A stretch of DNA of 64,000 nt from Eledone cirrhosa. Taxonomy: Eukaryota. The DNA lies in the NCBI GenBank assembly GCA_964016885.1, contig OZ024753.1, positions 46,872,001 through 46,936,000 of the forward strand. Reading direction: 5' to 3'. The first letter of the stretch is position 1, and each line of letters begins with the position of its first letter. The notes beneath the pieces were generated by a model. That model made no database searches, had not been told where the DNA came from, and worked only from the letters and a program-made list of their open reading frames with translations. The position numbers and the translations under genes were made by a program. Positions 660-60,391 of the stretch are shown piece after piece.

Positions 660-1129
660 AATGAATATTTATTCAATTTAAAGCGCCAATTATCTATATA
701 TAACAAGATATGAATTTTTCTAGGGATGGGGAAATTTTCAGTTTGTTTTTATATTTTCACTTCATTTTTTACTTTCTATTTAATACAGTCTTTGATCCAA
801 TATAATCCTGACAGTATTTGAACCAGTTTACCTCATATATATGTATGCACACACAACACTCAAGTTTCGCCATCTACTGCTATTTCATTCATATTTATTG
901 TTTAATTAACTCTGGTCTAATTCATCAACTATTGTTAATTATATTATTACGTAGATTTCTTATAAAATCTAGTGCATATATACGTGTATATATACAGGGA
1001 GACACTGTGTAATAGATGTAAAGAGAGTGGGAGATAGAGTTATAGAAGTAAAGAGAGGGAGAGAAATAAGCGGTAGATAGAGCAATAGATGTAAAGAGAG
1101 GGTTAGAACGTTCAACTTGACAGTCAGTA

Positions 1130-1201
1130 CATATGCCAACTACCCAACCGGCCAGCCAGCCGTATTTGCGGTTGACTGGCCAGTTGGGCGGTTGGTATGT
1201 G
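1130..1201. other. 72-nt GC-rich inverted repeat/hairpin, type A allele; also at 22788-22859 and 42321-42392
   Basis: Arms CATATGCCAACTACCCAACCGGCCAGCCAGCCG and CGGTTGACTGGCCAGTTGGGCGGTTGGTATGTG align without gaps. Confidence 0.9.
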
Positions 1202-1304
1202 GAACGTTCAACTATGCAGTCAGTACCAAAGTTCAACATTGTAGCCAGTGCATATGCCGATCGCCGCGACCTCTTTGCTCTATTTAAATGACCTGGAACT
1301 AAGT

Positions 1305-1417
1305 AAAAAGAGTAGGAGATAACTCGACAAGAGCGGAGAGGGTGAGATTCGAACCATGTAAAGTCGTTGGCTCCTGAAGTTCGTAAGCGGGGCTGCTACT
1401 GACTGATCAACGCCGGC
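1305..1417 (-). ncRNA. Candidate Pol III tRNA-like small RNA gene (~113 nt), unit 1
   Basis: Minus strand: TATAAG at 1446-1451, GCCGGCG start, A-box-like G(A/C)TCAGTCAGTAG, B box GGTTCGAATCT at 1345-1355, TTTTT at 1305-1309. Does not fold into a full cloverleaf. Confidence 0.5.
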
Positions 1418-1722
1418 AGCAAGGCAAATCGCGCATAAAATAACGCTTATATTGAGAAAATAAAACAAAAATTTCAATGTTGCACTCTTGTTTGTTGTTC
1501 TTTTATTTTACGTAAATATTTCGCTGCTCTAGCCTCTTATTTCCTATTAGATTACACTTAATTCCATTAAACATTCATTCTTAGTCTCGTGGTAAACTAT
1601 TTCATCTATATTTATATCGCTGTTACAGCCTTTTATTTCTACATCTATCACCTATAGCCACTGTTACGCCGGTAGTATAAGTAGCTTTATAACAAGAAAC
1701 GATGATATAACTCCACAAAATG

Positions 1723-2398: not shown

Positions 2399-4403
2399 TC
2401 ATAACGGTACGCGATGGGACCCACCCACAGCCCCGGCGGACAGAATGGAGAAGGCGTTTCCCCGGAGCACGGCAAGGGAGACGCGCTGGAAAAGCCACTC
2501 CAACTCGCGGGGCTCACACCTGCGGCTGGCCAGCTCAGCGCCTATGGTGGTGAGTAAGGAGGTAGCCCTGGGGCCGAGGACACCAGAAGTCTCCACTTCC
2601 AGGGGTACGACCGTAAACCTGTCGGAGAGTGAACGATATGTGAGCAGTTTGGCCCTCTCAGCCTGACGTGCAGCAGAACCTGGGCCAGTCGCAGACTGCA
2701 CCAGGTTGCGGCTGCAGAAAGTGTCGGTGCAAGTGGCATCCCAGACGAGGGGTTTGCCACCGCGGAACGGGAAGATGGTCATGCCATCTGGCCTTTTGCC
2801 GTCCCCTGGAGCTGGGAAGGGAAGCCTGCAGCGTCCAAGCCATGCTTAATGATTTCGTTGAGGGCAGCATGGCGTGGATTGCGGCTGGCACTGTGGCGAC
2901 AGGAAAGCGGGTGGAGGCCGAAAGAGTCAATGGTGGAACGGCAGCGACATTGGTGTGAGGCCGAGCCTCAGGGAAACGCCGATGCGCAAGCTATGGTTGT
3001 CTAGCTGCGTGCGAGTGGAGAAGGAGGGCAGGGCATGGAGCCAGGCCCCACTGTGGGGTTTGGAGGCCGCACGAAAACAAACAAGGCGGTGCTGGTCGAG
3101 CTGGCACGTGAGCCTGTCTGAGGCCAGGCTGCACTGGATGGCATCCCAAGTGTGTTGGGGGGGGACTTGACGTCAACAGGGGGAGAAGGAGGAGGAACGT
3201 CTACTGGGCTAAGTCCCAGCCGGTGCCACGTCTCACAGGCGGCCACGCGTTCTCTGAACACAGAGGGTTCTGTTGTGTTTTGAAGAACCCTGCTGAGGTG
3301 GACGTGGTACGAGGTTACCGACGAAAGATACGCCGGCAAAGCTAGTGAGATCGGGGACTGGAGGCGAAGGTCGCCATACCTGATAGGTAAAGTTGCATAT
3401 CTCATCGGCTGCTGCTCGGATACAAGTCTGGGTGTAGCACAGAGTGTATAGAGGAGCTTCGGCATGGCGTAGCAGTTCCTCAGCAGAAAGAGAACTGGGT
3501 GGCCATCAATCAAGCCCAGTCGGCTCGTGAGAGTCTGAACTTGATGGTGGAGCGGATGGCCGGCGGGTGGATCGGTGAGGGCATCCTCTTTGGGGGTCAC
3601 CTGAACCTGGCGGAGAATGGACCGCACGTCCAAGACGGAGACTGCAAAGCTTGCAGCATCGAGGCTGACATTCACCACCTCCGACTTGGCTGAGTTGACC
3701 TGGAGGTCGATTCCCGCCAGCGCAGGAACCACCGATTGAAGGTCATGGCAGACCGCCTGTACGGGCCCACCCAAAGTAGCATCATCCAGATACCAAACGT
3801 TGAGAGGGGCCGTTATACTCCGGGCGATGTGGTCAATACCAAGGGTGAACAGGAGGGGTCCCAAAGGGTTGCCCTGTTGGATCCCAGTAGCCAAGGGTAT
3901 GACCGCATCAGCAGCATGTCGCATGCTCGGGGCTCCATATGACAGCTAGGCAGAGGGGGCTCGGCTGAGGCAGGCCTCGAGCAGATGATCCCAGCGTAAA
4001 GAGTTGAAGGCATTCCTCATGTCAAACTTGACAATGAGGTGGCTGGAGTCCCTGGATGCCGGTTCCGAGTGTTACGGACTTGCAGGTTACCTTGGCAGCC
4101 AGCCTCCGGAAGACATTGCCCACAGCAATGGGGCGTATGCCACCCTCTTTCTTCCTGAGAGCGGTGAAGCTGGCTGAAAAAAAGAGGCCTCGAGCATAAG
4201 AGTCCAGGGCGCCATGGATGAGCCTATTGGTGAGCGCCACAATTGCACTCAGAAGGCGGCGCCCGGCCTCAGCGGAGAGGGGAGATATCAACTCCTTGAG
4301 GAGGCCTGGTCAGAGACCATCAACATCACCGCAGCTGCTAGCTGGGAAGGACCTGATGGCGGACATGATGTCTGCATCAGAAGCCACAAGGAGCAAGTGT
4401 GGA
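2399..4403 (-). mobile_element. CRE-clade (RLE-type) non-LTR retrotransposon remnant, 5'-truncated and frameshifted, unit 1 (type A)
   Basis: GC-rich island. RT motifs GIRPIAVGNVFRRL, NAFNSL, QQGNPLGPLLF, WYLDD. Knuckle HQCRC..HPLSC..RH. RLE motifs KRPDG, WDATCTDT, VPLEVETSG, QRVSLAVLRGNA. Split over several frames. Confidence 0.88.
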
Positions 4404-5900: not shown

Positions 5901-6449
5901 AAAGACAAATCCACCTCATGGACGAGAATGCAAGGGCTCCTCCTCTTTGTTTCGGCCGCGGATGGCTAACCCTAACCCCATCCCCGCTCCCCACCGCTCC
6001 CAACCTCCAAACGCAATCCAAAACTTCAGAGTTGGTACCATTAATGTAGGCACCTTATAGGGTGGCTCTAACGAGGTTGTAGAAATGCTTGAACGTAAGG
6101 AGGTCGATGTTTGTTGTATTCAAGAGACCAGGTGGAGGGGTGGGTCTGCTAGATTCATCGTGGGTAAAGAACGATGCTATAAGCTTTTCTGTGTGGCAAA
6201 TGACAATGGGCTGGGTATACACATACCACCCCACCACCCCACCGCAAAGTGGTCGTGGAGGCGCCGCGGCAAAAAAGCACCCAGCCCACACTGTAAAGCT
6301 GACGTGGAGGTGCCACGGAAAAAAAAAAGCACCCAGCACTCACTGCAAACGGGGTTGGCGTCGGGAAGGGCACCCAGCTGTAGAAACCAATCCAGAATCA
6401 GCTCCCACCCCACCCTTGCAAGCATGGAAAAGCGGACGTATGATGAAGT

Positions 6450-6453
<4 letters not shown>
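5901..6453 (+). mobile_element. Internally deleted (bipartite) RTE: APE N-terminus fused to the 3'UTR. Copies at 11848-12400, 27566-28118, 47085-47637, 53020-53572, 58945-59497; 5'-clipped copies at 184-526, 21840-22182, 41375-41717
   Basis: Translates [48 protein letters not shown], matching the intact ORF N-terminus. It then switches near 6215 to RTE 3'UTR sequence ending GGACGTATGATGAAGTTGAT before (TA)n. Confidence 0.88.
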
Positions 6454-6518
<65 letters not shown>

Positions 6519-7086
6519 TATATATATACACATATATATATATACACACATATATATCAGTGTACATATATATATACATATATATATATATATAAATGAA
6601 TATTTATTCAATTTAAAGCGCCAATTATCTATATATAACAAGATATGAATTTTTCTAGGGATGGGGAAATTTTCAGTTTGTTTTTATATTTTCACTTCAT
6701 TTTTTACTTTCTATTTAATACAGTCTTTGATCCAATATAATCCTGACAGTATTTGAACCAGTTTACCTCATATATATGTATGCACACACAACACTCAAGT
6801 TTCGCCATCTACTGCTATTTCATTCATATTTATTGTTTAATTAACTCTGGTCTAATTCATCAACTATTGTTAATTATATTATTACGTAGATTTCTTATAA
6901 AATCTAGTGCATATATACGTGTATATATACAGGGAGACACTGTAATAGATGTAAAGAGAGTGGGAGATAGAGTTATAGAAGTAAAGAGAGGGGGAGAAAT
7001 AAGCGGTAGATAGAGTAATAGATGTAAAGAGAGGGTTAGAACGTTCAACTTGACAGTCAGTACAATGTTCAGCATGGTAGCCAGTA

Positions 7087-7158
7087 CATATGCCAACTAC
7101 CCAACCGGCCAGCCAGCCGCATATGCGGTTGACTGGCCAGTTGGGCGGTTGGTATGTG
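7087..7158. other. 72-nt hairpin, type B allele; also at 13009-13080, 28725-28796, 48254-48325, 54179-54250 and 60104-60175
   Basis: 35-bp ungapped arms centred on the palindrome CCGCATATGCGG; 28 of 35 pairs are Watson-Crick. Bracketed by direct repeats at 7039-7094 and 7159-7215. Confidence 0.9.
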
Positions 7159-7261
7159 GAACGTTCAACTACGCAGTCAGTACCAAAGTTCAACATTGTA
7201 GCCAGTGCATATGCCGATCGCCGCGCCCTCTTTGCTCTATTTAAATGACCTGGAACTAAGT

Positions 7262-7374
7262 AAAAAGAGTAGGAGATAACTCGACAAGAGCGGAGAGGTT
7301 GAGATTCGAACCATGTAAAGTCGTTGGCTCCTGAAGTTCGTAAGCGGGGCTGCTACTGACTGAGCAGCGCCGGC
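7262..7374 (-). ncRNA. Candidate Pol III tRNA-like RNA, unit 2
   Basis: Same layout; type B allele GCTGCT-CAGTCAGT-AGCAGC forms a perfect 6-bp stem. Confidence 0.5.
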
Positions 7375-8370
7375 AGCAAGTCAAATCGCGCATAAAATAT
7401 GGCTTATATCGACAAAAAAAAAAAAAAAAATTTCAATGTTGCACTCTTGTTTGTTGTTCTTTTATTTTACGTAAACATTTCGCTGCTCTAGCCTCTTATT
7501 TCCTATTAGATTACACTTAATTCCATTAAACATTCATTCTTAGTCTCGTGGTAAACTATTTCATCTATATTTATATCGCTGTTACAGCCTTTTATTTCTA
7601 CATCTATCACCTATAGCCACTGTTACGCCGGTAGTATAAGTAGCTTTATAACAAGAAACGATGATATAACTCCACAAAATGTCTTCTTGAGCAAGACACT
7701 TCACTTCATATTGCTCCAGTACACCGAGTTACACATAGACAGATACATACATACATACACAGATAGAAATGAGAGGTAGATAGAGTAAAAGATTTAAAGA
7801 GAGTGTGAGAAGTACGAGTTAGATAATGTAAAAGATTTAAAGAGAGGGTGAGAGTGTGACACACATTTATCTGTCTATCTCTCTCTATTTTAACACCGGT
7901 CGTTATAATTAGTTTTATAACACCGCTATATTACCGACATGAAAGAGGTAAATAATTATTTCTTAAATGTTTAGAACATGTTTCTCTTGTCTTCTTAAAT
8001 GTATAGAACATGTTTCTTATTTATATTCTTAACATAGCTAGGACCTTATCTCATTTACTGGTCTCTACTTTTAGGACTTTGCTGGTCCCATGTGCCCTCC
8101 ATGAAGACACACTCGCCCCTTCTCTCTCAGTCTCCGTACTAATTACTACACATACGTATATATATTTATTTTAAGAAACCTTAATGACAAATAATATAAA
8201 GTGTTTGTAAAGTGGGGAAGAGTAGTTTTACGGTGGGGTTGTTATATAGATATCGTTTTTGCAGTGGGGTCGTGACTGGCGTATAATAATGAGTCACTGT
8301 TGATGTATATACAAATCATGTTTTGGATATAAGTGAAGTTATTTAAGAGATTTAGTTGTTTTGTATACAT

Positions 8371-10349
8371 TCATAACGGTACGCGATGGGACCCACCCAC
8401 AGCCCCGGCGGACAGAATGGAGAAGGCGTTTCCCCGGAGCACGGCAAGGGAGACGCGCTGGAAAAGCCACTCCAACTCGCGGGGCTCACACCTGCGGCTG
8501 GCCAGCTCAGCGCCTATGGTGGTGAGTAAGGAGGTAGCCCTGGGGCCGAGGACACCAGAAGTCTCCACTTCCAGGGGTACGACCGCAAACCTGTCGGAGA
8601 GTGAACGATATGTGAGGAGTTTGGCCCCCTCAGCCTGACGTGCAGCAGAACCTGGGCCAGTCGCAGACTGCACCAGGTTGCGGCTGCAGAAAGTGTCGGT
8701 GCAAGTGGCATCCCAGACGAGGGGTTTGCCACCGCGGAACGGGAAGATGGTCATGCCATCTAGCCTTTTGCCGTCCCCTCGAGCTGGGAAGGGAAGCCTG
8801 CAGCGTCCAAGCCATGCTTAATGACTTCGTTGAGGGCAGCATGGCGTGGATTGCGGGTGGAGGCCGAAAGAGTCCATGGTGGAACGGCAGCGACATTGGT
8901 GTGAGGCCGAGCCTCAGGGAAACGCCGATGCGCAAGCTATTGTTGTCTAGCTGCGTGCGAGTGGAGAAGGAGGGCAGGGCATGGAGCCAGGCCCCACTGT
9001 GGGGTTTGGAGGCTGCACGAAAACAAACAAGGCGGTGCTGGTCGAGCTGGCACGTGAGCCTGTCTGAGGCCAGGCTGCACTGGATGGCATCCCAAGTGTG
9101 TTGGGCGGGACTTGACGTCAACAGGGGGAGAAGGAGGAGGAACGTCTACTGGGCTAAGTCCCAGCCGGTGCCACGTCTCACAGGCGGCCAGGCGTTCTCT
9201 GAACACAGAGGGTTCTGTTGTGTTTTGAAGAACCCTGCTGAAGAGGACGTGGTACGAGGTTACCGACGAAAGATATGCCGGCAAAGCTAGTGAGATCGGG
9301 GACTGGAGGCGAAGGCCGCCATACCTGACAGGTAAAGTTGCATATCTCATCGGCTGCTGCTCGGATACAAGTTTAGGTGTAGCACAGAGTGTATAGAGGA
9401 GCTTCGGCATGGCGTAGCAGTTCCTCAGCAGAAAGAGAACTGGGTGGCCATCAATCAAGCCCAGTCGGCTCGTGAGAGTCTGGACTTGATGGAGGAGCGG
9501 ATGGCCGGCGGGTGGATCGGTGAGGGCATCCTCTTTGGGGGGTCACCTGAACCTGGCGGAGAATGGACCGCACGTCCAAGACGGAGACTGCAAAGCTTGC
9601 AGCATCGAGGCTGACATTCACCACCTCCGACTTGGCTGAGTTGACCTGGAGGTCGATTCCCGCCAGGGCAGGAACCACCGATTGAAGGTCATGGCAGACC
9701 GCCTGTACGGGCCCACCCAAAGTAGCATCATCCAGATACCAAACGTTGAGAGGGGCCGTTATACTCCAGGCGATGTGGTCAATACCAAGGGTGAACAGGA
9801 GGGGTCCCAAAGGGTTGCCCTGTTGGATCCCAGTAGCCAAGGGTATGACCGTATCAGCAGCATGGCGCATGCTTGGGGCTCCATATGACAGGTAGGCAGA
9901 GGGGGCTCGGCTGAGGCAGGCCTCGAGCAGATGATCCCAGCGTAAAGAGTTGAAGGCATTCCTCATGTCAAACTTGACAATGAGGTGGCTGGAGGCCCTG
10001 GATGCCGGTTCCGAGTGTTACGGACTTGCAGATTACCTTGGCAGCCAGCCTCCGGAAGACATTGCCCACAGCAATGGGGCGTATGCCATCCTCTTTCTTC
10101 CTGAGAGCGGTGAGGCTGGCCGAAAAAAAGAGGCCTCGAGCATAAGAGTCCAGGGCGCCATGGATGAGCCTATTGGTGAGCGCCACAATTGCACTCAGAA
10201 GGCGGCGCCCGGCCTCAGCGGAGAGGGGAGATATCAACTCCTTGAGGAGGCCTGGTCAGAGACCATCAACATCTCCGCAGCTGCTAGCTGGGAAGGACCT
10301 GATGGCGGACATGATGTCTGCATCAGAAGCCACAAGGAGCAAGTGTGGA
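8371..10349 (-). mobile_element. CRE-like remnant, unit 2 (type B)
   Basis: Same motifs; 26-bp deletion in the knuckle and an extra frameshift in a G run. Confidence 0.88.
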
Positions 10350-10993
10350 TTACAATACAAAACCTCTGAGAATGATTTCTAAGATATTTCACCATAATTA
10401 ATTTTCATCAATATATATTAATATTATTATTGTTTATTAGGTCAGGTGGATTGGCCAGAACAATTCTACTCTTCTTTTTTAGATGTCACGATTTTTCATG
10501 GCATTCCTGAGATCATTAATCTCCAGCTGGAGATCCAGAGACATCTGATGTATGTAGGTGAACCTCAGTCATCCCACTTGGCTCTTACTATGTTTAGGTA
10601 TCCACCACAGGAGCCAGCTCATCAGGTCATCCTACCCTCAGCAGCAATGTCCAGCATCTATTGATTTCCGCTCCCTAGTTATTGTGGTAATCTTCGATAT
10701 CTGGGAATATATTTCTTCTGCTTAAGGGAGTAATAAATATATAGTTTAAAAAAAAACATATATATACACACACATATATATATGTTGTCATTTATAAGAG
10801 TTCTCTATCAAAAGCCTTCTCTATGTCCAAAGCTAAGTATAGTGGCTTATTTTTCTCTAAGAACCTCTTTTGTAGTTGTCTCACTAAGAAGAGGGCATCT
10901 GTTGCACTTTTCAGCGGCACAAAACCAAACTGCATCTCATACACATACATACATATACATACATACATACATACATATACACATACATACATA

Positions 10994-11348
10994 CATCATC
11001 ATCATCATCATCATCATCATTTCGTTTTAAGTCCGCTTTTTCCCTGCTTGTAAGGGTGGGACGGGAACTGATTCTGGCTTGATTTCTAGAGCTGGATGCC
11101 CTTCCTAACACCAACCTCATTTACAGTGAGTGCTGAGTGCTTTTTTGCCGTGGCACCTCCACGACCACTTTGCAGTGGAATGATATGGACCCCAGTCCCT
11201 ATCATCTCATTTCTACAGCTGAGTAAACTGGAGCAATGTGAAATAACGTGTCTTGCTCAAGGAAACAACACATCACCCGGTCTGAGAATTGAACTCACAA
11301 CTTTTCAATTGCCAGGCCAATGCTCGAACCACTAAGCCATGTGCCTCC
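10994..11348 (-). mobile_element. Same SINE, unit 2
   Basis: Near-identical to 5048-5387 with a longer GAT tail. Confidence 0.8.
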
Positions 11349-12396
11349 ATATACATATACATATACATATACATACACATACATATACATACATATATAT
11401 ATACATACATACATATATACACATACATACATACACATACATACACATATACATACATATACATACATAGATATATATATATATACATAATATAAATATA
11501 CATACATACACATACACACATAAGTATATATACATATACACACGTATATATACATATACATACATACATATATACACATACATACATATATACATACATA
11601 CACACATATATACATATACACATACATACATATACATACATATACACATACATACATATATATATACATACACACACATATATACATACACACACATATA
11701 TACATACACACACATATATACAAACACATACATATACACATATATACACATACATACACATACATATACATACATATACACATATACACTCATATATACA
11801 TATACATACATACACACACATACATACATATATACATATACATACATAAAGACAAATCCACCTCATGGACGAGAATGCAAGGGCTCCTCCTCTTTGTTTC
11901 GGCCGCGGATGGCTAACCCTAACCCCATCCCCGCTCCCCACCGCTCCCAACCTCCAAACGCAATCCAAAACTTCAGAGTTGGTACCATTAATGTAGGCAC
12001 CTTATAGGGTGGCTCTAACGAGGTTGTAGAAATGCTTGAACGTAAGGAGGTCGATGTTTGTTGTATTCAAGAGACCAGGTGGAGGGGTGGGTCTGCTAGA
12101 TTCATCGTGGGTAAAGAACGATGCTATAAGCTTTTCTGTGTGGCAAATGACAATGGTCTGGGTATACACATACCACCCCACCATCCCACCGCAAAGTGGT
12201 CGTGGAGGCGCCGCGGCAAAAAAGCACCCAGCCCACACTGTAAAGCTGACGTGGAGGTGCCACGGAAAAAAAAAAGCACCCAGCACTCACTGCAAACGGG
12301 GTTGGCGTCAGGAAGGGCACCCAGCTGTGGAAACCAATCCAGAATCAGCTCCCACCCCACCCTTGCAAGCATGGAAAAGCGGACGTATGATGAAGT

Positions 12397-13183: not shown

Positions 13184-13296
13184 AAAAAGAGTAGGAGATA
13201 ACTCGACAAGAGCGGAGAGGGTGAGATTCGAACCATGTAAAGTCGTTGGCTCCTGAAGTTCGTAAGCGGGGCTGCTACTGACTGAGCAGCGCCGGC
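13184..13296 (-). ncRNA. Candidate Pol III tRNA-like RNA, unit 3
   Basis: Same layout as unit 2. Confidence 0.5.
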
Positions 13297-14291
13297 AGCA
13301 AGGCAAATCGCGCATAAAATAACGCTTATATCGACAAAAAAAAAAAAAAAATTTCAATGTTGCACTCTTGTTTGTTGTTCTTTTATTTTACGTAAACATT
13401 TCGCTGCTCTAGCCTCTTATTTCCTATTAGATTACACTTAATTCCATTAAACATTCATTCTTAGTCTCGTGGTAAACTATTTCATCTATATTTATATCGC
13501 TGTTACAGCCTTTTATTTCTACATCTATCACCTATAGCCACTGTTACGCCGGTAGTATAAGTAGCTTTATAACAAGAAACGATGATATAACTCCACAAAA
13601 TGTCTTCTTGAGCAAGACAGTTCACTTCATATTGCTCCAGTACACCGAGTTACACATAGACAGATACATACATACATACACAGATAGAAATGAGAGGTAG
13701 ATAGAGTAAAAGATTTAAAGAGAGTGTGAGAAGTACGAGTTAGATAGTGTAAAAGATTTAAAGAGAGGGTGAGAGTGTGACACACATTTATCTGTCTATC
13801 TCTCTCTATTTTAACACCGGTCGTTATAATTAGTTTTATAACACCGCTATATTACCGACATGAAAGAGGTAAATAATTATTTCTTAAATGTTTAGAACAT
13901 GTTTCTCTTGTCTTCTTAAATGTATAGAACATGTTTCTTATTTATATTCTTAACATAGCTAGGACCTTATCTCATTTACTGGTCTCTACTTTTAGGGCTT
14001 TGCTGGTCCCATGTGCCCTCCATGAAGACACACTCGCCCCTTCTCTCTCAGTCTCCGTACTAATTACTACACATACGTATATATATTTATTTTAAGAAAC
14101 CTTAATGACAAATAATATAAAGTGTTTGTAAAGTGGGGAAGAGTAGTTTTACGGTGGGGTTGTTATATAGATATCGTTTTTGCAGTGGGGTCGTGACTGG
14201 CGTATAATAATGAGTCACTGTTGATGTATATACAAATCATGTTTTGGATATAAGTGAAGTTATTTAAGAGATTTAGTTGTTTTGTATACAT

Positions 14292-16269
14292 TCATAACGG
14301 TACGCGATGGGACCCACCCACAGCCCCGGCGGACAGAATGGAGAAGGCGTTTCCCCGGAGCACGGCAAGGGAGACGCGCTGGAAAAGCCACTCCAACTCG
14401 CGGGGCTCACACCTGCGGCTGGCCAGCTCAGCGCCTATGGTGGTGAGTAAGGAGGTAGCCCTGGGGCCGAGGACACCAGAAGTCTCCACTTCCAGGGGTA
14501 CGACCGCAAACCTGTCGGAGAGTGAACGATATGTGAGGAGTTTGGCCCCCTCAGCCTGACGTGCAGCAGAACCTGGGCCAGTCGCAGACTGCACCAGGTT
14601 GCGGCTGCAGAAAGTGTCGGTGCAAGTGGCATCCCAGACGAGGGGTTTGCCACCGCGGAACGGGAAGATGGTCATGCCATCTAGCCTTTTGCCGTCCCCT
14701 CGAGCTGGGAAGGGAAGCCTGCAGCGTCCAAGCCATGCTTAATGACTTCGTTGAGGGCAGCATGGCGTGGATTGCGGGTGGAGGCCGAAAGAGTCCATGG
14801 TGGAACGGCAGCGACATTGGTGTGAGGCCGAGCCTCAGGGAAACGCCGATGCGCAAGCTATTGTTGTCTAGCTGCGTGCGAGTGGAGAAGGAGGGCAGGG
14901 CATGGAGCCAGGCCCCACTGTGGGGTTTGGAGGCTGCACGAAAACAAACAAGGCGGTGCTGGTCGAGCTGGCGCGTGAGCCTGTCTGAGGCCAGGCTGCA
15001 CTGGATGGCATCCCAAGTGTGTTGGGGGGGACTTGACGTCAACAGGGGGAGAAGGAGGAGGAACGTCTACTGGGCTAAGTCCCAGCCGGTCCCACGTCTC
15101 ACAGGCGGCCACGCGTTCTCTGAACACAGAGGGTTCTGTTGTGTTTTGAAGAACCCTGCTGAGGAGGACGTGGTACGAGGTTACCGACGAAAGATATGCC
15201 GGCAAAGCTAGTGAGATCGGGGACTGGAGGCGAAGGCCGCCATACCTGACAGGTAAAGTTGCATATCTCATCGGCTGCTGCTCGGATACAAGTTTAGGTG
15301 TAGCACAGCGTGTATAGAGGAGCTTCGGCATGGCGTAGCAGTTCCTCAGCAGAAAGAGAACTGGGTGGGCATCAATCAAGCCCAGTCGGCTCGTGAGAGT
15401 CTGGACTTGATGGAGGAGCGGATGGCCGGCGGGTGGATCGGTGAGGGCATCCTCTTTGGGGGTCACCTGAACCTGGCGGAGAATGGACCGCACGTCCAAG
15501 ACGGAGACTGCAAAGCTTGCAGCATCGAGGCTGACATTCACCACCTCCGACTTGGCTGAGTTGACCTGGAGGTCGATTCCCGCCAGGGCAGGAACCACCG
15601 ATTGAAGGTCATGGCAGACCGCCTGTACGGGCCCACCCAAAGTAGCATCATCCAGATACCAAACGTTGAGAGGGGCTGTTATACTCCAGGCGATGTGGTC
15701 AATACCAAGGGTGAACAGGAGGGGTCCCAAAGGGTTGCCCTGTTGGATCCCAGTAGCCAAGGGTATGACCGTATCAGCAGCATGGCGCATGCTTGGGGCT
15801 CCATATGACAGGTAGGCAGAGGGGGCTCGGCTGAGGCAGGCCTCGAGCAGATGATCCCAGCGTAAAGAGTTGAAGGCATTCCTCATGTCAAACTTGACAA
15901 TGAGGTGGCTGGAGGCCCTGGATGCCGGTTCCGAGTGTTACGGACTTGCAGATTACCTTGGCAGCCAGCCTCCGGAAGACATTGCCCACAGCAATGGGGC
16001 GTATGCCATCCTCTTTCTTCCTGCGAGCGGTGAGGCTGGCCGAAAAAAAGAGGCCTCGAGCATAAGAGTCCAGGGCGCCATGGATGAGCCTATTGGTGAG
16101 CGCCACAATTGCACTCAGAAGGCCGCGCCCGGCCTCAGCGGAGAGGGGAGATATCAACTCCTTGAGGAGGCCTGGTCAGAGACCATCAACATCTCCGCAG
16201 CTGCTAGCTGGGAAGGACCTGATGGCGGACATGATGTCTGCATCAGAAGCCACAAGGAGCAAGTGTGGA
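14292..16269 (-). mobile_element. CRE-like remnant, unit 3
   Basis: Same motifs; longest open piece is 342 aa (14858-15886). Confidence 0.88.
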
Positions 16270-17199
16270 TTACAATACAAAACCTCTGAGAATGATTTCT
16301 AAGATATTTCACCATAATTAATTTTCATCAATATATATTAATATTATTATTGTTTATTAGGTCAGGTGGATTGGCCAGAACAATTCTACTCTTCTTTTTT
16401 AGATGTCACGATTTTTCATGGCATTCCTGAGATCATTAATCTCCAGCTGGAGATCCAGAGACATCTGATGTATGTAGGTGAACCTCAGTCATCCCACTTG
16501 GCTCTTACTATGTTTAGGTATCCACCACAGGAGCCAGCTCATCAGGTCATCCTACCCTCAGCAGCAATGTCCAGCATCTATTGATTTCCGCTCCCTAGTT
16601 ATTGTGGTAATCTTCGATATCTGGGAATATATTTCTTCTGCTTAAGGGAGTAATAAATATATAGTTTTAAAAAAAACATATATATACACACACATATATA
16701 TATGTTGTCATTTATAAGAGTTCTCTATCAAAAGCCTTCTCTATGTCCAAAGCTAAGTATAGTGGCTTATTTTTCTCTAAGAACCTCTTTTGTAGTTGTC
16801 TCACTAAGAAGAGGGCATCTGTTGCACTTTTCAGCGGCTTAATTAATTAATGAGGTTTAATTAATGAGGAATTTTGAGGTATTTATAACAATTATTAATT
16901 ATTTCATTACTGAGATATCATTTGAAGGACTTACTAATGTTTTTATTTATTAATTATTTTATTAGTAACTTAACATGTGGTTCTTGTATAAAATTATGTT
17001 GGAAGATTTTAGGAAGATGCTATGTAGCCGGTCGCGGTAAAATAGACGCCCAGGCTATGTAGCCGGTAAGAGTGTCAGACTCCATGTGTTGCGGCCCTTT
17101 ATGGTCTGAGTTAAGACAATTTAAAATCTTTTCCACCATCAATTGTTAAAAAACAAGTTAAAATCATTTTGTCGTCCATTTGTAACGTACGTTACACTT

Positions 17200-17920
17200 T
17201 AGTTACATACACATATACTATGTTACATACACACATCTACTGTGTTACATACACACACATCAACTGGGTTATATACACACACATCTACTGCGTTACATAC
17301 ACATCTACTGTGTTACACACACATCTACTGTGTTACATACACACACATCTACTGAGTTACATACACACACATCTACTGTGTTACATACACACACATCTTC
17401 TGTGTTACATACACACATCTACTGTGTTACATACACACACCTGTGTTACATACACACACATCTACTGAGTTACATACACACAGATCTACTGTGTTACATA
17501 CACACACATCTACTGTGTTACACACATCTTCTATGTTACATACACACAATCTACTGTGTTACATACACACATCTACTGAGTTACATACACACACATCTAC
17601 TGAGTTACATACACACACATGTACTGTGTTACATACACACATCTACTGTGTTACATACATACACATCTACTGTGTTACATACATACACATCTACTGTTAC
17701 ATACACACATCTACCGTGTTACACACACACATCTACCGTGTTACACACACACATCTACCGTGTTACACACACACATCTACCGTGTTACACACACACATCT
17801 ACTGAGTTACATACACATATACTGAGTTACATGCAAACACACATCTACTCTGTTACATATACACATCTACTGTGTTACATACACATCTACTGTGATACAC
17901 ACACACACATCTACTCATAC
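17200..17920. repeat. ~22-24 bp minisatellite (ACACACATCTACTGTGTTACAT)
   Basis: About 30 degenerate tandem copies, with variants ACTGAG and ACCGTG. Confidence 0.96.
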
Positions 17921-18738
17921 ATATTCATAAATAGACACACATTATACAAATAATTATTACATACACACACATCTCTGTAATAATTCAGGAAGGAAGGGGC
18001 TGGTGAAACGCTATAGCAATGTGTGTGTGTTGTGTACCTTTCAGGTTTACCGGTTTCGTAGCCTATTTGAAGATTTTATTATAATTATGAACCTTATAAT
18101 TCAATTAATTATGAATAATTTTGAGCTATTTATCACAATTGTTAGTTAATTACTAACATAGTAACTTACCATATGGTTGTTATATAGAATTTTGTTGGAA
18201 GACTTTAATTTAGATAGGAACCATTTCCATAGTACGAGAACTAATTTTGGCTGGGTTTCTACCAAAAGGGTTAATGAAGAATTTTGAACAATTTACTAAA
18301 ATTATTAATTATTTCATTACTAAGATAATGTGTGAATACACAATTATATGTGTGTATATATATATAAACAGTATATATATAGTATATATATATATAAACA
18401 GTATATATATATATAGTATATATATATATAAACAGTATATATATAGTATACAAAAGATGTAGTGGGATAGTGTGTAGTCTTAAGACAAGTCTGTCCAGAT
18501 AGCTGCGCTGTAACTTACACTTATTGGGACTGTGTGTTGGCAAGCAGGCCTGTATTTTGGGATCTAGCTGGTCCATTATGAGGGAGGTCTGGTTAGTTGG
18601 CAGCACCATGCCTTACTTGTGGTATATGTATGTATAGAAATAAGTTATTGTATATGCATAACTGTCCATCTATATGTATACATGTATGTTTACTTATATC
18701 TTTGCATACATATATACATTTTCAGATGTATACACGTA

Positions 18739-20659
18739 ATGGTCACCCGGATAGTAAACCAAGTCATACAGAATGGGGTTGTTCTGAAGGACTGGCGTAG
18801 CAGCATCATCATTAACTGTTACAAGGGTAAAGGAGATGCCCTAGATAGGAGTAACTATAGAGGCATTAAATTAATCGACCAGGTCATGAAGGTCACGGAA
18901 AAAGTAATAGCGCAACTAATCAGAGAGAGAATTGATCTAGATGAAATGCAGTTCGGGTTTGTGTCAGGTAAAAGTACCACAGACGCTCTTTTCATTGTAC
19001 GACAACTACAGGAGAAGTACCTAGTTAAAAGTAAACCCCTATACTTAGCTTTTGTTGACTTGGAGAAAGCCTTCGACAGAGTCCCCCGTTCCATTATCTG
19101 GTGGGCTCTTAGAAAACTAGGTGTTGAGGAATGGCTTGTGAGAGCTATACGAGCCATGTATAAAGAAACAGTCAGCAAGGTTAGAATTAACAACGAATAT
19201 AGTGAAGAGTTTAGCGTAAAAGTTGGTGTTCATCAGGGCTCCGTCCTTAGCCCCCTACTATTTATTATTGCCCTTCAGGCTATAACAGTGGAGTTCAAGA
19301 CCGGCTGCCCATGGGAACTCCTATACGCAGATGATCTAACGCTCATAGCTGAATCAATGGCCGAGCTAGAGAAGAAATTCCAAACATGGAAGCAAGGCCT
19401 AGAATCAGAAGGCCTTAAAATTAACCTGGCTAAGACTAAAGTTCTAGTTTGTAGGAAAGAAAATAAGGCGCCGGTCCCTTCCGGGAAATGGCCATGCTCA
19501 GTGTGTAGGAAAGGCGTAGGTAGAAACTCCATTTTATGTCCCAAATGCAAAGTATGGGTTCATAAAAGATGTAGTGGGATCACAGGTAAGCTAACTAAGA
19601 ACATAGATTTTACATGTGGCCGGTGCTCTGGTGCAATAAGTAGCAGCAAGTGCCCACAAAATACTAGCTCTTTCAATTGCGCAGAGGGTTCTATAGAAAT
19701 AGTGGACAGCTTCCGTTACCTGGGTGACAAAATCAGCAGTGGGGGAGGGTGCTCTGAAAGTACAGTAGCTAGAGTCAGAACTGGATGGAAAAAGTTCAGA
19801 GAGCTTATACCACTATTAGCCGCTAAAGGGTTCTCCCTAAAAATGAAAGGCAGGTTGTATGATGCCTGCATATGAACAGCAATGTTGCATGGCAGTGAGA
19901 CCTGGGCATTGTGTGCAGAGGATATACGCAGACTAGAGAGGAACGAAGCTTGCATGCTTCGCTGGATGTGTAATAGTAATATATGTGAACGGCAAAGCAT
20001 AAACGAACTAAGGGAAAAATTAGAAATAAGAGGGATCTGATGTTGTGTACTCGAGAGAAGACTACGTTGGTATGGTCCACGTGATGCGGATGAAAGACGA
20101 CAGCTGTATAAAAAAAATGCAGGGCAATAAAGATAGACGGTAGCCACGGAGTAGGCAGACCCAGAAAAACCTGGGACGACTTGATAAATTCCGACCTCAC
20201 ACACTTACACCTCTCCAAGACAATGTCACTGGACCGAGATCTTTGGCGGTACTCAGTAATAGAGAAGACCCGCCTTACCTAGATACAAAGTAAAACCTAC
20301 TACAGTCAGTAGGCACCTCTAACAAAATACACCCCCACCCCATCCACACCGCCCCTTTCAATGTAAAGTTATGTTGGTGCCACAACATCCAGGCCGAAAC
20401 AAATGAGGTCGTGTAGGTGTCACGACAAAAAAAAAAAAACACAGTCCACGCAGTAATGTGGCCGTGTAGGTAACACGGTAAAAACCTCCCAGTCCCACAC
20501 TGTAAATGCGGTTGGTGTTAGGAAGGGCATCCAGCTGTAGAAAACCCGCCAGACAGTCCTATGCGAGCAAGACAACCACTCTTGCCTCAAGTGGGAAAAT
20601 TCCCGTCCAAACCCATGCAAGCGTGGAATATGGACGTTAAACGATGATGATGATGATGA

Positions 20660-20663
<4 letters not shown>
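18739..20663 (+). pseudogene. 5'-truncated, inactivated RTE copy (RT, PHD, 3'UTR, (GAT)n tail)
   Basis: Homology to the intact RTE starts at VTRIVNQVI. YADD and PHD are present. In-frame TGA at 19873-19875, a second TGA near 20038 and a later frameshift. The first ~40 aa of the listed ORF are flanking simple sequence. Confidence 0.93.
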
Positions 20664-20714
<51 letters not shown>

Positions 20715-20717
<3 letters not shown>

Positions 20718-21839
20718 CTTTGACATTTCTTAGAAAAAAAATGAAAAAGTTTTGTGAGAACCCCAATGTTTATTTATTTTATTTTATTTTTAAATAAAAT
20801 TAATAACATTAATTTTATTTTGAAATTAGGTTTATAAATATTAATTATCAGCAGACCTTTGTAGCAGTCTTGGCGGCTTAGTGGGAAGTACCAGAGATGG
20901 TGAGGTCCTTGTCTGTAGGTTCAATCCTGGTCTGGGAGTTCAATCATTGCTGTAATGTGTCCTGTTAATCTTTTTTTAAATTTTCCTCAGAAAAAACTGA
21001 AAATCTTTGGTGAGAACCCCAATGTCTATTTATCTAATATAATTTAATTTATTTTATTTTATTTTACTTTAGTTAAATTGTCAAAACCACTGGTGATCTA
21101 AAGTTAGAGGAGACAGATAAAATAGACATATTGTCTCCTCAACCTTTAGATCTTCAGTGTTTTCGACAATTTAACTAAAATAAAAAATTAAATTCAATAT
21201 AATTAAATAAATAGGGGTTCTCTTTTTCAAAGAGATATAGAAAGAAAATTATAAAAGATTAACATGACACCTTACATGTATCTCATGGACCAGGATTGAA
21301 CCTGAGTCCCCAATTCAACCCTCAGACCAGGATTGAACACCCAGAACAGGATCTCACCATCTCTGGTACTTCCCACTAAGCTACCGAGACTGATACAAAG
21401 ATGTACTGAAATTTAATATTTATAAACCTACTTTCAAAATAAAATTAAAAATAAAATATATATATATATATATTCCTTTGACATTTCTTAGAAAAAAGAA
21501 CTGAAAAAGTTTTGTGAGAACGCCAATGTCTATTTATTTTATTTTATTTTTAATTAAATTAGTTATATTTTGAAAGTAGGTTTATAAATATTAATTTTCA
21601 ATAGACCTTTGTAGCAGTCTTGGTGGCTTAGTGGGAAGTACCAGAGATGGTGAGATCCTTGTCTGTAAGTTCAATTCTTGCTTGGAGACATGTCTAATGT
21701 GTCCTATTAATCTTTTTTTAATTTTCCTTTTACATCTCTTAGAAATAACTGAAAATCTTTGGTGAGAACCCCAATGTCTATTTATCTAATATAATTAATT
21801 TAATTTAATTTAATTTAATTTTTATTTTAGTGAAACCAC
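20715..21839. repeat. Three copies (+,-,+) of a ~350-bp AT-rich element with a tRNA-like A/B-box head; the first two form a fold-back
   Basis: Heads at ~20867-20945 (+), ~21287-21390 (-) and ~21617-21690 (+). Inverted arms meet at 21115/21132 with a 16-nt spacer. Confidence 0.85.
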
Positions 21840-22962: not shown

Positions 22963-23075
22963 AAAAAGAGTAGGAGATAACTCGACAAGAGCGGAGAGGG
23001 TGAGATTCGAACCATGTAAAGTCGTTGGCTCCTGAAGTTCGTAAGCGGGGCTGCTACTGACTGATCAACGCCGGC
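22963..23075 (-). ncRNA. Candidate Pol III tRNA-like RNA, unit 4
   Basis: Same as the unit 1 allele. Confidence 0.5.
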
Positions 23076-28899: not shown

Positions 28900-29012
28900 A
28901 AAAAGAGTAGGAGATAACTCGACAAGAGCGGAGAGGGTGAGATTCGAACCATGTAAAGTCGTTGGCTCCTGAAGTTCGTAAGCGGGGCTGCTACTGACTG
29001 AGCAGCGCCGGC
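28900..29012 (-). ncRNA. Candidate Pol III tRNA-like RNA, unit 5
   Basis: Same as the unit 3 allele. Confidence 0.5.
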
Positions 29013-34126: not shown

Positions 34127-37100
34127 CATCATCATCATCATCACCGTTTTACGTCCGTTCTTCCACGCTAGCATGGGTTAGACGGGTTGTCCTGTTGTGG
34201 GCAGTGTCTGGTCGGCTGACCATGCCTTGCTCATACAGGAACTGATCTGGCTTGATTTCTACAGCTGGATGCCCTTCCTAACACCAACCTCATTTACAGT
34301 GAGTGCTGGGTGCTTTTTCGTGGCGCCTACACGTCCACTTTACAGTGTGGGCTGGGTGCTTTTTTGCCGTGGCACCTCCACGACCACCTTGCGGTGGGGG
34401 GGGGGGGGGCATATTGTTTATATGCTTCAGCATGTACCCATGGGAGGTCGGGTACCCTGTATTACTGCGTGACGCCAGAAGTCACGGTCGTGTGTCATTG
34501 ACTTTGAGAGGTGTAGTTGGGTAAGGTCGGCTTTTATCACCTCATCCCAAGTCATCTTGGGTCTCCCCACTCCGCGGTTTCCATCAACTTCTAGTGCTCT
34601 GCACCTTTTTATGCAGCTGTCATCCTTCATACGCATCACATGTCCATACCAGCGTAACCGCCTCTCCTGCACGCAGCATTTGATTCCTCTTATGCTCAGT
34701 CTCTCTCTCAATTCATTTATGCTTTGTCGTTCACGTATATTACTGTTACACATCCATCGGAGCATGCAGGCTTCGTTTCTCTCTAATCTACGTAAGTCTT
34801 CCACCTTCAGCGCCCAGGTCTCACTACCATGCAACATCGCTGTTCGGATACACGCATCATACAGTCTGCCTTTCATTCTGAGGGAGAAGCCTTTTGCAGC
34901 TAGCAGTGGTAGTAGTTCCCTAAACTTCTTCCATCCCGTTCTTACCCTAGTTATTGTACTTTCTGAGCACCCACCTCCGTTGCTAATTCGGTCACCTAGG
35001 TAGCAGAAGCTGTCTACTGTTTCTACAGGGCCCTCCCAGAGATTGGTGGTACTTGTTTCCTGTGGCTGTTTGCTTGCTGTTTCAGCACAGCTGCTGCATG
35101 TGAATCCTACATTCTTAATTAAGCTTCCTGAGATCCCGCTACATCTCTTGTGTACCCATTGTTTGCATTTGGGGCAAAGAATGGAGTTCCTACCTACACC
35201 TTTCCTACATACTGAGCAAGGCCATTTCCCTGAGGGGATCTGGGTTCTGTTTTCTCGTCTACTTATAAGGACCTTAGTCTTTGTCATGTTGACTTTGAGG
35301 CCCTTTCTCTCTAGTCCCTGCTTCCAGGTTTGGAATTTATTCTCTAGTTCTACCATAGATTCAGCTATGAGTGCGAGGTCATCAGCATACAGGAGTTCCC
35401 ATGGGCATCCGGTCTTAAACTCCTCCGTTATTGCCTGCAGGACTATGATGAACAGGAGAGGGCTAAGAACAGAGCCCTGGTGGACCCCAACCTGTACGCT
35501 AAATTCCTCGCTATACTCATTGCCAATCCTAACTTTGCTGACTGCTCCCCTATACATGGCTTGTACCGCTTTCACAAGCCATTCATCTACTCCTAGTTTT
35601 CTAAGAGCCCACCAGATTACTGCACGTGGAACTCTGTCAAAGGCTTTCTCAAGGTCGACAAATGCCAAGTAGAGTGGCTTACTTTTAGCTAGGTACTTTT
35701 CCTGTAATTGCCTCACAAGGAAGAGCGCATCAGTGGTGCCTTTCCCTGGAACAAACCCAAATTGCATCTCGTCTATATTCACCCGGTCCCTAATCAGCTG
35801 TGCTATAACTCTTTCTGTTACTTTCATGACCTGGTCCATCAACTTTATACCTCTATAGTTTCCTCTATCTAGTGCATCGCCTTTACCTTTGTAGCAGTTG
35901 ACAATGATGCTACTGCACCAATCTTTTGGTATGGCCCCCTCTAGTATTACCTGGTTAACGATACGTGTGGTTATAGTGTGACCTACAGACCCAGATGCCT
36001 TCAGCATCTCGGCAGCTATACCCGATGGACCGGTTGCCTTCCCTATCTTCATATCTCTGATTGCCTTACTTACTACGCTGCCGCTGACTTGTACTGCTGG
36101 TCCCTCTATAGGGTCTACGTGGGGTAGGGTCTCTTCTTCCCATGCATTCTCCTCATTTAGTAATCTATCATAATGACTCTTCCATGCATCTTTCTTCTCA
36201 GCACTTGTGAGGGCAAGCTCACCTTTATCATTCCGGATACACTTCTCTCCAATGACATCACAACTATCTCTGACACACTGCCTCGCAATCTTGAATACCT
36301 CCTGTTTCTGGTCCTCACGTTGTAAAACATGCTTGAATTTTCTATCCTCTGCTTCCCTCCTAGCTAAGTATACTTGTCGCCTAGCTTCCCTCTTGGTCTC
36401 TATGTAATGTACCCTGCTCCCCCCGTTCTTCCATTCTTTCCATGCCTGTCTCTTGGCCTTGACTGCTTCATCTACCTTATTGTTCCACCACCAAGTCACT
36501 CTCCTCCTGCTTGAGGTCTTACTCCAGCCACAAACCTCATCCGTCGCCTCTAGTAAGTTATTTTTTAGGAACTCCCAGTTCTCTTCTACGTTAAATGTCT
36601 CTATCTGTTCTTCTTTACTGTCGTAGGCGTTGAGTAAAATATCTTTAAATCTGTTACTGGTTGAGGGGACTTTCAGCTTCCAGATCTTTCTTCTCCAGGT
36701 TGGCCTCTGTTTCAGGGCTCGTCTAGTTCTGACCGTGAGGTCGCTGACAACTAAGCTATGTTGGGATGTACATTCCTCACTAGGGAAGGCTTTTGTGTTT
36801 ACGACCGTCCATCTGTCACGTCCTCTGATGAGAATAAAATCTAACTGACTAGAGTGCTCCCCTGATCTATAGGTGATCAGGTGGTTGTCGGGTTTTTTAA
36901 AGTTTGTGTTACATATCGACATGTCATTGGCGTCGCAGAATTCTAGAAGTCTGAATCCTTCCTCATTCCTTGTGCCAACTCCATGGCCTCCATGTACTCT
37001 ATTGAAGCCGTCGCAGTGTTTACCTACGTGTCCGTTAAAATCTCCTGCAATGATTAGGAAGTCCTTGTCGTCTGTTAGAGCAGTAGTGTGTATTAGGGAC

Positions 37101-42495: not shown

Positions 42496-42608
42496 AAAAA
42501 GAGTAGGAGATAACTCGACAAGAGCGGAGAGGGTGAGATTCGAACCATGTAAAGTCGTTGGCTCCTGAACTTCGTAAGCGGGGCTGCTACTGACTGATCA
42601 ACGCCGGC
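42496..42608 (-). ncRNA. Candidate Pol III tRNA-like RNA, unit 6
   Basis: Type A allele with one private change (ctgaacttcg). Confidence 0.5.
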
Positions 42609-48428: not shown

Positions 48429-48541
48429 AAAAAGAGTAGGAGATAACTCGACAAGAGCGGAGAGGTTGAGATTCGAACCATGTAAAGTCGTTGGCTCCTG
48501 AAGTTCGTAAGCGGGGCTGCTACTGACTGAGCAGCGCCGGC
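48429..48541 (-). ncRNA. Candidate Pol III tRNA-like RNA, unit 7
   Basis: Same allele as unit 2 (gagaggttgag). Confidence 0.5.
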
Positions 48542-54353: not shown

Positions 54354-54466
54354 AAAAAGAGTAGGAGATAACTCGACAAGAGCGGAGAGGGTGAGATTCG
54401 AACCATGCAAAGTCGTTGGCTCCTGAAGTTCGTAAGCGGGGCTGCTACTGACTGAGCAGCGCCGGC
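54354..54466 (-). ncRNA. Candidate Pol III tRNA-like RNA, unit 8
   Basis: Type B allele with accatgcaaag. Confidence 0.5.
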
Positions 54467-60278: not shown

Positions 60279-60391
60279 AAAAAGAGTAGGAGATAACTCG
60301 ACAAGAGCGGAGAGGGTGAGATTCGAACCATGCAAAGTCGTTGGCTCCTGAAGTTCGTAAGCGGGGCTGCTACTGACTGAGCAGCGCCGGC
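60279..60391 (-). ncRNA. Candidate Pol III tRNA-like RNA, unit 9
   Basis: Same allele as unit 8. Confidence 0.5.

Follow-up and report, generated by a model that had tools for sequence, protein, structure and literature searches.

The 113-nt element that recurs throughout the window, a stretch of 64,000 nt from Eledone cirrhosa (contig OZ024753.1), probably represents the decayed youngest branch of a once transcribed, tRNA-Ser-derived Pol III gene family, which would now be carried as a passenger in a subtelomeric macro-repeat. The window contains nine copies of a 5.9-kb unit, 94-100% identical to one another, in blocks that are split by a spacer of about 5 kb. Each unit harbors the element once on the minus strand (9/9), as the original prediction had stated in describing one intact island of about 350 bp per unit, and the surrounding islands are 94-100% identical. 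Its survival in the clipped units, which had been pointed out, is uninformative on selection because the clip lies about 3.5 kb away from the element. Within the arrays the element is likely a passenger of the 5.9-kb repeat rather than a selected gene cluster. The family is an apparently undescribed Pol III small-RNA family in an invertebrate; no description of it was found in listings of largely open-access literature.

Counted from GCC through the last T, all nine copies measure 113 nt. TATAAG at -34, the B box GGTTCGAATC at +63, and a T5 run that starts 46 nt after the first B-box base are constant in 9/9 copies, which confirms the uniform length, B box, TATA, and terminator that had been reported. 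The copies differ pairwise by a mean of 2/113 positions. The gene features of the window are as follows.

1305..1417, minus strand: gene copy 1 (gene 1, array subfamily), a 113-nt, likely tRNA-derived Pol III-type gene, located by pattern scan; ends backed by solo copy L019
7262..7374, minus strand: gene copy 2, pattern scan
13184..13296, minus strand: gene copy 3, pattern scan
22963..23075, minus strand: gene copy 4, pattern scan
28900..29012, minus strand: gene copy 5, pattern scan
42496..42608, minus strand: gene copy 6, pattern scan
48429..48541, minus strand: gene copy 7, pattern scan
54354..54466, minus strand: gene copy 8, pattern scan
60279..60391, minus strand: gene copy 9, pattern scan
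1446..1451, minus strand: TATA-like TATAAG at -34 of copy 1, a motif retained in older subfamilies
1399..1410, minus strand: A box (+8 to +19) of copy 1, non-canonical; canonical in solo copies L162 and L163
1345..1355, minus strand: B box of copy 1; the 13-mer GGTTCGAATCTCA here recurs unchanged in the T arm of tRNA-Ser(GCT) L160
1305..1326, minus strand: conserved 3′ tail and T5 terminator of copy 1, with the GAGTTATC motif common to gene 2

The internal B box and the T5 run give a type-2 Pol III layout in 9/9 copies, and the A box is canonical in the solo copies L162 and L163. Relative to the tRNA consensus, the array A box departs at +9 and +18 in all copies. The A-box-like sequence that had been described is present, with a further deviation at +11 in 3/9 copies (1305-1417 included) that read GATCAG instead of GCTCAG. 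By chance, a B box of the same form occurs in 20/300 randomised units. A strict A+B+T pattern has 0 matches in the real unit, which it misses because the array A box is non-canonical, and 0/300 in random units.

The element had been called an unrecognised small RNA, and the searches bear this out. In Rfam, the window yields 0 matches at the gathering score, the 113-mer at E<=10 yields only a weak match to DUF805b, 22 nt long and on the other strand, and array, B, C, E, F, and solo copies in E-value mode yield generic hairpin matches alone. ARAGORN reports 0 genes in the whole window and makes no call on the gene at 70-80% thresholds, with relaxed settings returning noise. The predicted fold of the gene is ordinary (z -1.7 to +1.0 versus shuffles).

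The repeat unit is composed of several further parts.

6112..12057, no strand: one full 5.9-kb unit; three of the nine units in the window are clipped
1130..1199, no strand: 70-bp imperfect palindrome, in array-type units only, without strand preference and outside the gene
1202..1258, no strand: direct repeat of about 57 bp flanking the palindrome; counterparts in unit 2 at 7039-7094 and 7159-7215
7213..7527, minus strand: core block of about 315 bp common to the older B subfamily; reaches 7854 in comparison with L064 and L066
6927..7040, no strand: remnant of the 43-bp minisatellite found after the gene in subfamilies A-E, with another remnant at 7765-7854
2399..3945, minus strand: reverse transcriptase (RT) and C-terminal fragments of a broken non-LTR retrotransposon, presumably CRE-like by motif; Pfam RVT_1 on the copy at 14858-15937
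11010..11348, minus strand: abundant SINE with a tRNA head, located in the unit and 93% identical to the one joined to the gene in solo copy L139

The long hairpin next to the gene is real, as it folds far better than shuffled sequence (z -7.7 to -9.1, 0/200 shuffles). The earlier view that it forms part of the module does not hold, because older copies lack it and the 100 listed of 319 genome matches to the hairpin pattern all sit at array-type units. The palindrome is a late, array-only DNA addition without strand bias and is separate from the gene. Its loop has 4 nt, its two strands carry 4 GU plus 3 AC (plus) and 3 GU plus 4 AC (minus), and their folding energies are -55 versus -53 kcal/mol. 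A pre-miRNA reading was rejected on account of the 4-nt loop and the missing strand specificity, and a pre-miRNA family match on account of its Rfam score of 28 bits versus a gathering score of 90.

The spacers hold their own contents. One of them carries an uninterrupted 1040-aa LINE ORF (34427-37549, minus strand; endonuclease, RT, PHD) that is possibly a recent insertion. The spacer at 16839-21826 stands in place of the clipped unit's last 1.1 kb and comprises a 22/24-bp minisatellite and an RT fragment; nested direct and inverted repeats of about 370 bp lie at its end (20700-21830). Among sequencing records, a 151-nt contig from run X9 matches 13213-13325 with 2 differences, the contigs matched from runs X6, X7, and X8 are short, low-depth, and near-identical, and X10 yields no match; these records were left out of any cross-species comparison of conservation.

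Across the genome, the exact A-box-to-B-box pattern has 296 matches (control 0) and a DNA search returns 379 candidates for the element. Both counts are lower bounds, because DNA scoring covers the 40 best candidates and the pattern list is limited to 100 matches, and more distant relatives could lie beyond these 40. About 300 near-identical copies are found in 5.9-kb tandem arrays, most of them close to chromosome ends, which among the matches listed are located on C6, C8, C9, C10, C11, and C13. Besides the arrays, there are scattered copies of the whole unit or of kilobase parts of it. The ends of C5, C6, C9, and C13 carry (TTAGGG)n at most about 200 kb from copies, the C10 array lies within 80 kb of the contig end, and the C11 arrays are interstitial; no telomere repeat was found in the first 10 kb of C8. 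At the telomere-bearing ends, the genes point away from the telomere, as would be expected for exchange between chromosome ends.

The family likely descends from a serine tRNA, judging from comparison with host tRNA-Sec (L069, L070), tRNA-Ser(TGA, AGA), and tRNA-Ser(GCT) L160, a panel made up of Ser-type and Sec tRNAs. The tRNA-Ser(GCT) pattern has 1 match in the genome in its looser version (L160) and 0 in its strict version. Against this panel of Ser and Sec only, gene 1 of subfamily E (the oldest) matches host tRNA-Ser(GCT) at z=6.8-7.2, and the most diverged gene 1 (C26) has Ser(GCT) as its best match (z 7.2 versus 4.5 for Sec). Gene 2, a paralog described below, reaches z=4-6 with the Ser tRNAs. 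D, gene 2, and E favour Ser; array and B copies reach z of about 4 versus Sec, and the array copy is ambiguous (Sec z 3.9-4.0, Ser z 3.0-4.4). The A-to-B spacing is of type II, and the tRNA-Ser likeness spans the first ~80 nt of older copies. In agreement with the original prediction, the acceptor and T stems do not pair (0-4/7 and 1-3/5 pairs in 7 variants), and none of the variants makes a cloverleaf; a functional tRNA was rejected on this ground and on the ARAGORN result.

Two tRNA loci of the host deserve mention in their own right. The true tRNA-Sec genes on C23 (L069, L070) have the octamer ATGCAAAT about 80 nt upstream together with a TATA-like stretch, and a small hairpin trailer precedes their T-run. 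A tandem array of tRNA-Ser(TGA) with a unit of about 1.68 kb is located near a contig end (C1:441.19-441.23 Mb, L074-L080).

At least 50 older copies of the family are 65-90% identical, and the majority of them consist of a tandem pair of paralogous genes. Gene 2 is located about 45 nt beyond gene 1 and comes with an A box, a B box, and a GAGTTATC motif of its own. A distant family, reached via a search for unusual 3′ ends, is 70-85% identical in the best 40 of 408 candidates, which were scored, and 35 of these cover both genes. Ten B-type copies (84-88% identical) share a block of about 315-680 bp with the window and are devoid of the palindrome. Neither the array branch (A) nor the B branch contains gene 2, which would have been lost in both. 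The older 5′ stem is also gone from the array version, as is the canonical A box, and these three losses speak against the tandem units as a selected RNA cluster.

Several observations were made at older copies. Stacked satellites of 34, 53, 71, 64-67, and 43 bp are located directly upstream of B-type copies (L064:5516-9999, L066:5464-9373), and the 71-bp satellite also borders the C13 array (L171). A fragment on C1 (L164, 225.83 Mb) begins at about +2 of gene 2 and adjoins a SINE, and another on C15 (L162, 31.07 Mb) ends about 7 nt ahead of gene 2; speculatively, these edges resemble a read-through RNA cut at the start of gene 2. The long-stem 5′ arm of C26 copies (L153:4484-4527, minus strand, and others) holds UGAGGUAGUAG, identical to the let-7 consensus over its initial 11 nt (Rfam 14 bits, E 7). 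This likeness is probably due to chance, since the A box predisposes to part of UGAGGUAGUAG.

Past transcription of the family is made likely by four solo copies, which begin within +1 to +7 and carry no upstream flank. L019 (C4, mid-chromosome) matches exactly from +1 to TTT, after which come the ~65 final nucleotides of an RT-encoding LINE, in the same orientation. Copies of the LINE donor of this tail are 5′-truncated and sit in (TA)n, as seen at 19 further loci among 237 candidates. L139 is composed of the gene, TTTT, and a complete SINE, and lies inside (TA)n. L162 and L163 begin at about +5 to +7; the former extends 45 nt beyond a mutated terminator and the latter ends 4 nt before the T-run. 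The type-2 Pol III-like gene is thus found with the ends that had been predicted, as solos start at or just inside +1 and two of them end at the U-run. Clean target-site duplications were not found: L019 and L139 sit in (TA)n, and L162 and L163 are flanked by only 4-6-nt matches. Random DNA breaks would place four 5′ edges within seven bases with a rough p of 3e-6, a value that assumes about ten independent breakpoints over 660 nt and leaves ascertainment outside the model. The starts at +1 without flank and the U-run ends fused to a LINE or SINE are therefore fossil evidence of a discrete Pol III transcript, from which we infer that such transcripts may have existed in the germ line at several stages. 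The solo copies derive from several subfamilies and none (0/4) is of array type, so the fossil evidence does not extend to the arrays.

U6/LINE and U6/SINE chimeras of this anatomy, including ones from the L2 and RTE clades, are described in PMC4476161, according to which chimeras of this kind favour Pol III RNAs that end in uracils. In the genome examined here, the LINE tail of L019 also follows the tRNA-Sec retrocopy L073 (85% over 62 nt, E 6.5e-15). The three tRNA-Sec retrocopies L071, L072, and L073 (on C4, C1, and C17) include the trailer up to the T-run, and L071 and L072 share a repeat tail that is different from that of L073. Pre-tRNA/LINE chimeras thus occur in this genome, as three Sec retrocopies are fused to two kinds of repeat 3′ ends.

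The probable passenger status of the array element is supported by three features: the gene diverges as its flanks do, its stem shows no covariation, and A and B no longer have the 5′ stem. In a comparison of six subfamilies, gene 1 is 65-78% identical (90% for B versus A) and its upstream flank 65-80% (85%). Invariant sites amount to 53/112 in the gene versus 83/217 in the flank (p=0.13). Among 44 distinct array-type copies, 21/113 sites vary in the gene versus 77/552 in the flank (p=0.24), and 2/33 vary in B box plus tail (p=0.29). The idea of an undescribed small-RNA gene cluster stands as far as the Pol III-like gene is concerned, and selection on the arrays is unseen, with identity equal to that of the flanks. 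The passive tRNA-derived or SINE head, which had been named as the alternative, suits the arrays better, except that the arrays contain no SINE body or tail. The 5′ stem forms 12-16 expected pairs in C, D, E, and L139, 5.6 in F, and 0-0.3 in A and B. No covariation or compensatory change was found in it, and two stem pairs are broken in 12/22 aligned copies, including all array types. RNAalifold recovers nothing in the family beyond a 3-pair tail stem.

It is unlikely, on these data, that the element is a selected, lineage-specific Pol III RNA akin to BC1 or snaR, whose 3′ tail binds a protein or target and whose dosage is raised about 300-fold by the arrays. Such an RNA would account for the local conservation, as 15/17 B-box and 16/22 tail positions are invariant across six subfamilies that are 65-90% identical. 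Jointly, the B box and the 22-nt tail reach 31/39 invariant sites versus 83/217 in the flank (p=2e-6), where the tail window was picked after viewing the alignment and the best AT-rich flank windows are equally high (0.94, 0.91). This conservation hints at selection, and the retention of GAGTTATC in both paralogs of C, D, and E seems poorly explained by passive drift. The long 5′ stem common to C, D, E, and L139 and the retrocopies from several subfamilies point in the same direction, and PMC3045588 offers a precedent, as snaR genes (~117 nt, Pol III) have entered tandem arrays through segmental duplication. However, the whole gene is not conserved above its flanks, compensatory changes are absent from the broken stem, and the B box is mutated in copies L035, L051, L110, and L106. 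An AT-rich 20-nt block at -134 to -115 of gene 1, with 15/20 positions invariant in six subfamilies, equals the B box and tail in conservation and could be an upstream promoter element.

It is improbable that a Helitron captured the cassette and carried it through the genome by rolling-circle transposition, with the arrays as rolling-circle concatemers and the palindrome as terminator or origin. The link rests on RepHel helicase pieces that lie upstream on the same strand in 9/11 loci examined, end 0.26-0.8 kb away (2.9 kb at one insertion-bearing locus), and come from two Helitron families that are only ~45% identical in protein, and on the stacked minisatellites in the module. However, the cassette is found in 0/29 other copies of the L136 Helitron family (C2; family D), so that it was rejected as the normal 3′ region of a Helitron. 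These other copies retain their own hairpin-plus-CTAG end, and their 3′ end lies elsewhere than the cassette. The Helitron link is accordingly incidental or a rare capture. The family-C copies also share sequence upstream of their Helitron pieces and are therefore segmental duplicates of one junction. No RepHel was found upstream of the C26 copies or in the window, and the Helitron-linked copies lack the palindrome. The DNA upstream of the cassette core (about -220 to +520) differs between loci: it is AT-rich on C26, holds a decayed Helitron on C2, and is made up of retroelement fragments together with Helitron fragments on C1, C18, C20, C24, C25, and C27. L173-L201 belong to an abundant Helitron family whose members share 85-89% of their amino acids and terminate at the 3′ side in a clear GC-rich hairpin and CTAG.

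The remaining explanations fare worse. It is very improbable that the element is merely the decayed head of an ordinary SINE with a large family of dispersed members: it has a tRNA-derived head with A and B boxes, and one solo shows the exact head-plus-LINE-tail build, but nearly all listed ones of the 296 exact matches sit in arrays, in place of the thousands of dispersed copies expected of a SINE, and only 10 B-type copies add to them. A T-run followed by a non-array base occurs in only 5 matches, 2 of which are solos. Moreover, in arrays and older cassettes alike the gene is followed by neither a SINE body nor a LINE tail, the tail being present in one solo alone. It is equally hard to believe that the element is the host's unannotated vault RNA or Y RNA. 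A length of about 113-118 nt, internal A and B boxes, and an oligo-U end would fit. However, a terminal 5′-3′ stem is a defining feature of vault RNA, and 7 variants form 0-0.6 expected pairs there. The Rfam models Vault and Y_RNA give no match at E<=10 or E<=5 in the window or in array, older, and solo copies, and older copies resemble tRNA-Ser along their first ~80 nt. According to PMC7058938, vault RNAs are little conserved beyond box A and box B, which would ease such a reading. A viral VA/EBER-like origin is unsupported because the matches in viral contigs (1) and metagenome contigs (4) have unrelated flanks.

For the preferred passenger reading, five steps can be proposed. The pathway would start with a tRNA-Ser gene that lost its cloverleaf, gained a tail of about 30 nt, and duplicated into a two-gene cassette. 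In Pol III genes of this type, TFIIIC binds the B box and Pol III transcribes from +1 to the T-run; judging from the layout, the same would apply here and would give a short RNA with an oligo-U end that is not a tRNA. Subsequently, a LINE RT may occasionally have switched onto the U-tail of the RNA, a mechanism suggested by the observed anatomy, and the resulting solo chimeric retrocopies would have failed to amplify. In what would be the fourth step, a DNA module of about 0.7-1.5 kb with the cassette recurs in several upstream contexts. Finally, the branch without gene 2, 5′ stem, and canonical A box, and with the palindrome added, is seen in arrays on at least six chromosomes, which it may have reached when chromosome ends exchanged DNA.

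Any present function would be at the level of the promoter (TFIIIC/Pol III occupancy, low-level RNA) and not of RNA structure. A more ambitious proposal is a cephalopod BC1/snaR-like RNA from tRNA-Ser, built as a tandem Pol III pair with a conserved 3′ recognition motif, whose ~300 subtelomeric copies are now expressed as a dosage-amplified regulator or act as TFIIIC-bound boundary elements; this is unlikely. Within one genome, the history of the family can be followed from a likely tRNA-Ser origin through a two-gene cassette and the abortive birth of a SINE, with template switching by LINE and SINE, to an expansion into ~300 subtelomeric copies. Exact probe boundaries for an expression test are supplied by the chimeras. 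High levels of the RNA in brain or gonad would make the family an independent counterpart of BC1 and snaR; if silent, the family would instead show cleanly how a Pol III gene can hitchhike in a macro-repeat of subtelomeres.

Rodent BC1, a conserved neuronal gene present once, goes back to tRNA-Ala. Like the family described here, it is transcribed from a tRNA-derived Pol III gene whose 5′ part refolds into a hairpin in place of the cloverleaf and whose 3′ tail is unique, and it is a source of retrocopies; in contrast to BC1, the present family is multi-copy and known from sequence alone. Octopus OK, OR1, and OR2 and the Ceph-SINEs, families cited in PMC4758252, are counted among the tRNA-derived SINEs, and octopus SINEs were reportedly published by Ohshima and Okada in 1994. 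Such SINEs have a tRNA head with A and B boxes, as the family does, and one solo also shares with them a LINE-derived tail. Unlike such SINEs, the family has no body or tail in arrays or cassettes, has its own terminator, left few retrocopies, and spread mainly as DNA.

The U6/LINE and U6/SINE chimeras (PMC4476161) resemble L019 and L139 in that a U-run-ended Pol III RNA is joined in the same orientation to a 5′-truncated LINE or a SINE, and tRNA-Sec forms such chimeras in this genome as well. The donor differs, being a tRNA-derived RNA, and target-site duplications would be hard to tell apart inside (TA)n. Vault RNA, according to PMC7058938 and PMC10491885, is comparable in size, type-2 internal promoter, and small tandem clusters; the family differs by its missing terminal stem, its lack of an Rfam match, and its recognisable tRNA-Ser ancestry.

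The closest parallel is snaR, for which PMC3045588 describes a Pol III RNA of ~117 nt with an intragenic promoter and an oligo-U end, a ~0.5-kb core that segmental duplication multiplied into tandem arrays, with unrelated DNA as padding, and ancestors that left retrocopies, all of which recalls the present family. Membership in snaR was rejected, as the Rfam searches gave no SRP match and the head is tRNA-like. snaR arose from Alu/7SL, whereas the family likely came from tRNA-Ser; snaR comprises ~30 genes versus ~300 copies here, in arrays at several chromosome ends; and for snaR, expression and NF90 binding have been shown, whereas the present family is a genomic record. By analogy, the family would work most like snaR, yet it is not a member.
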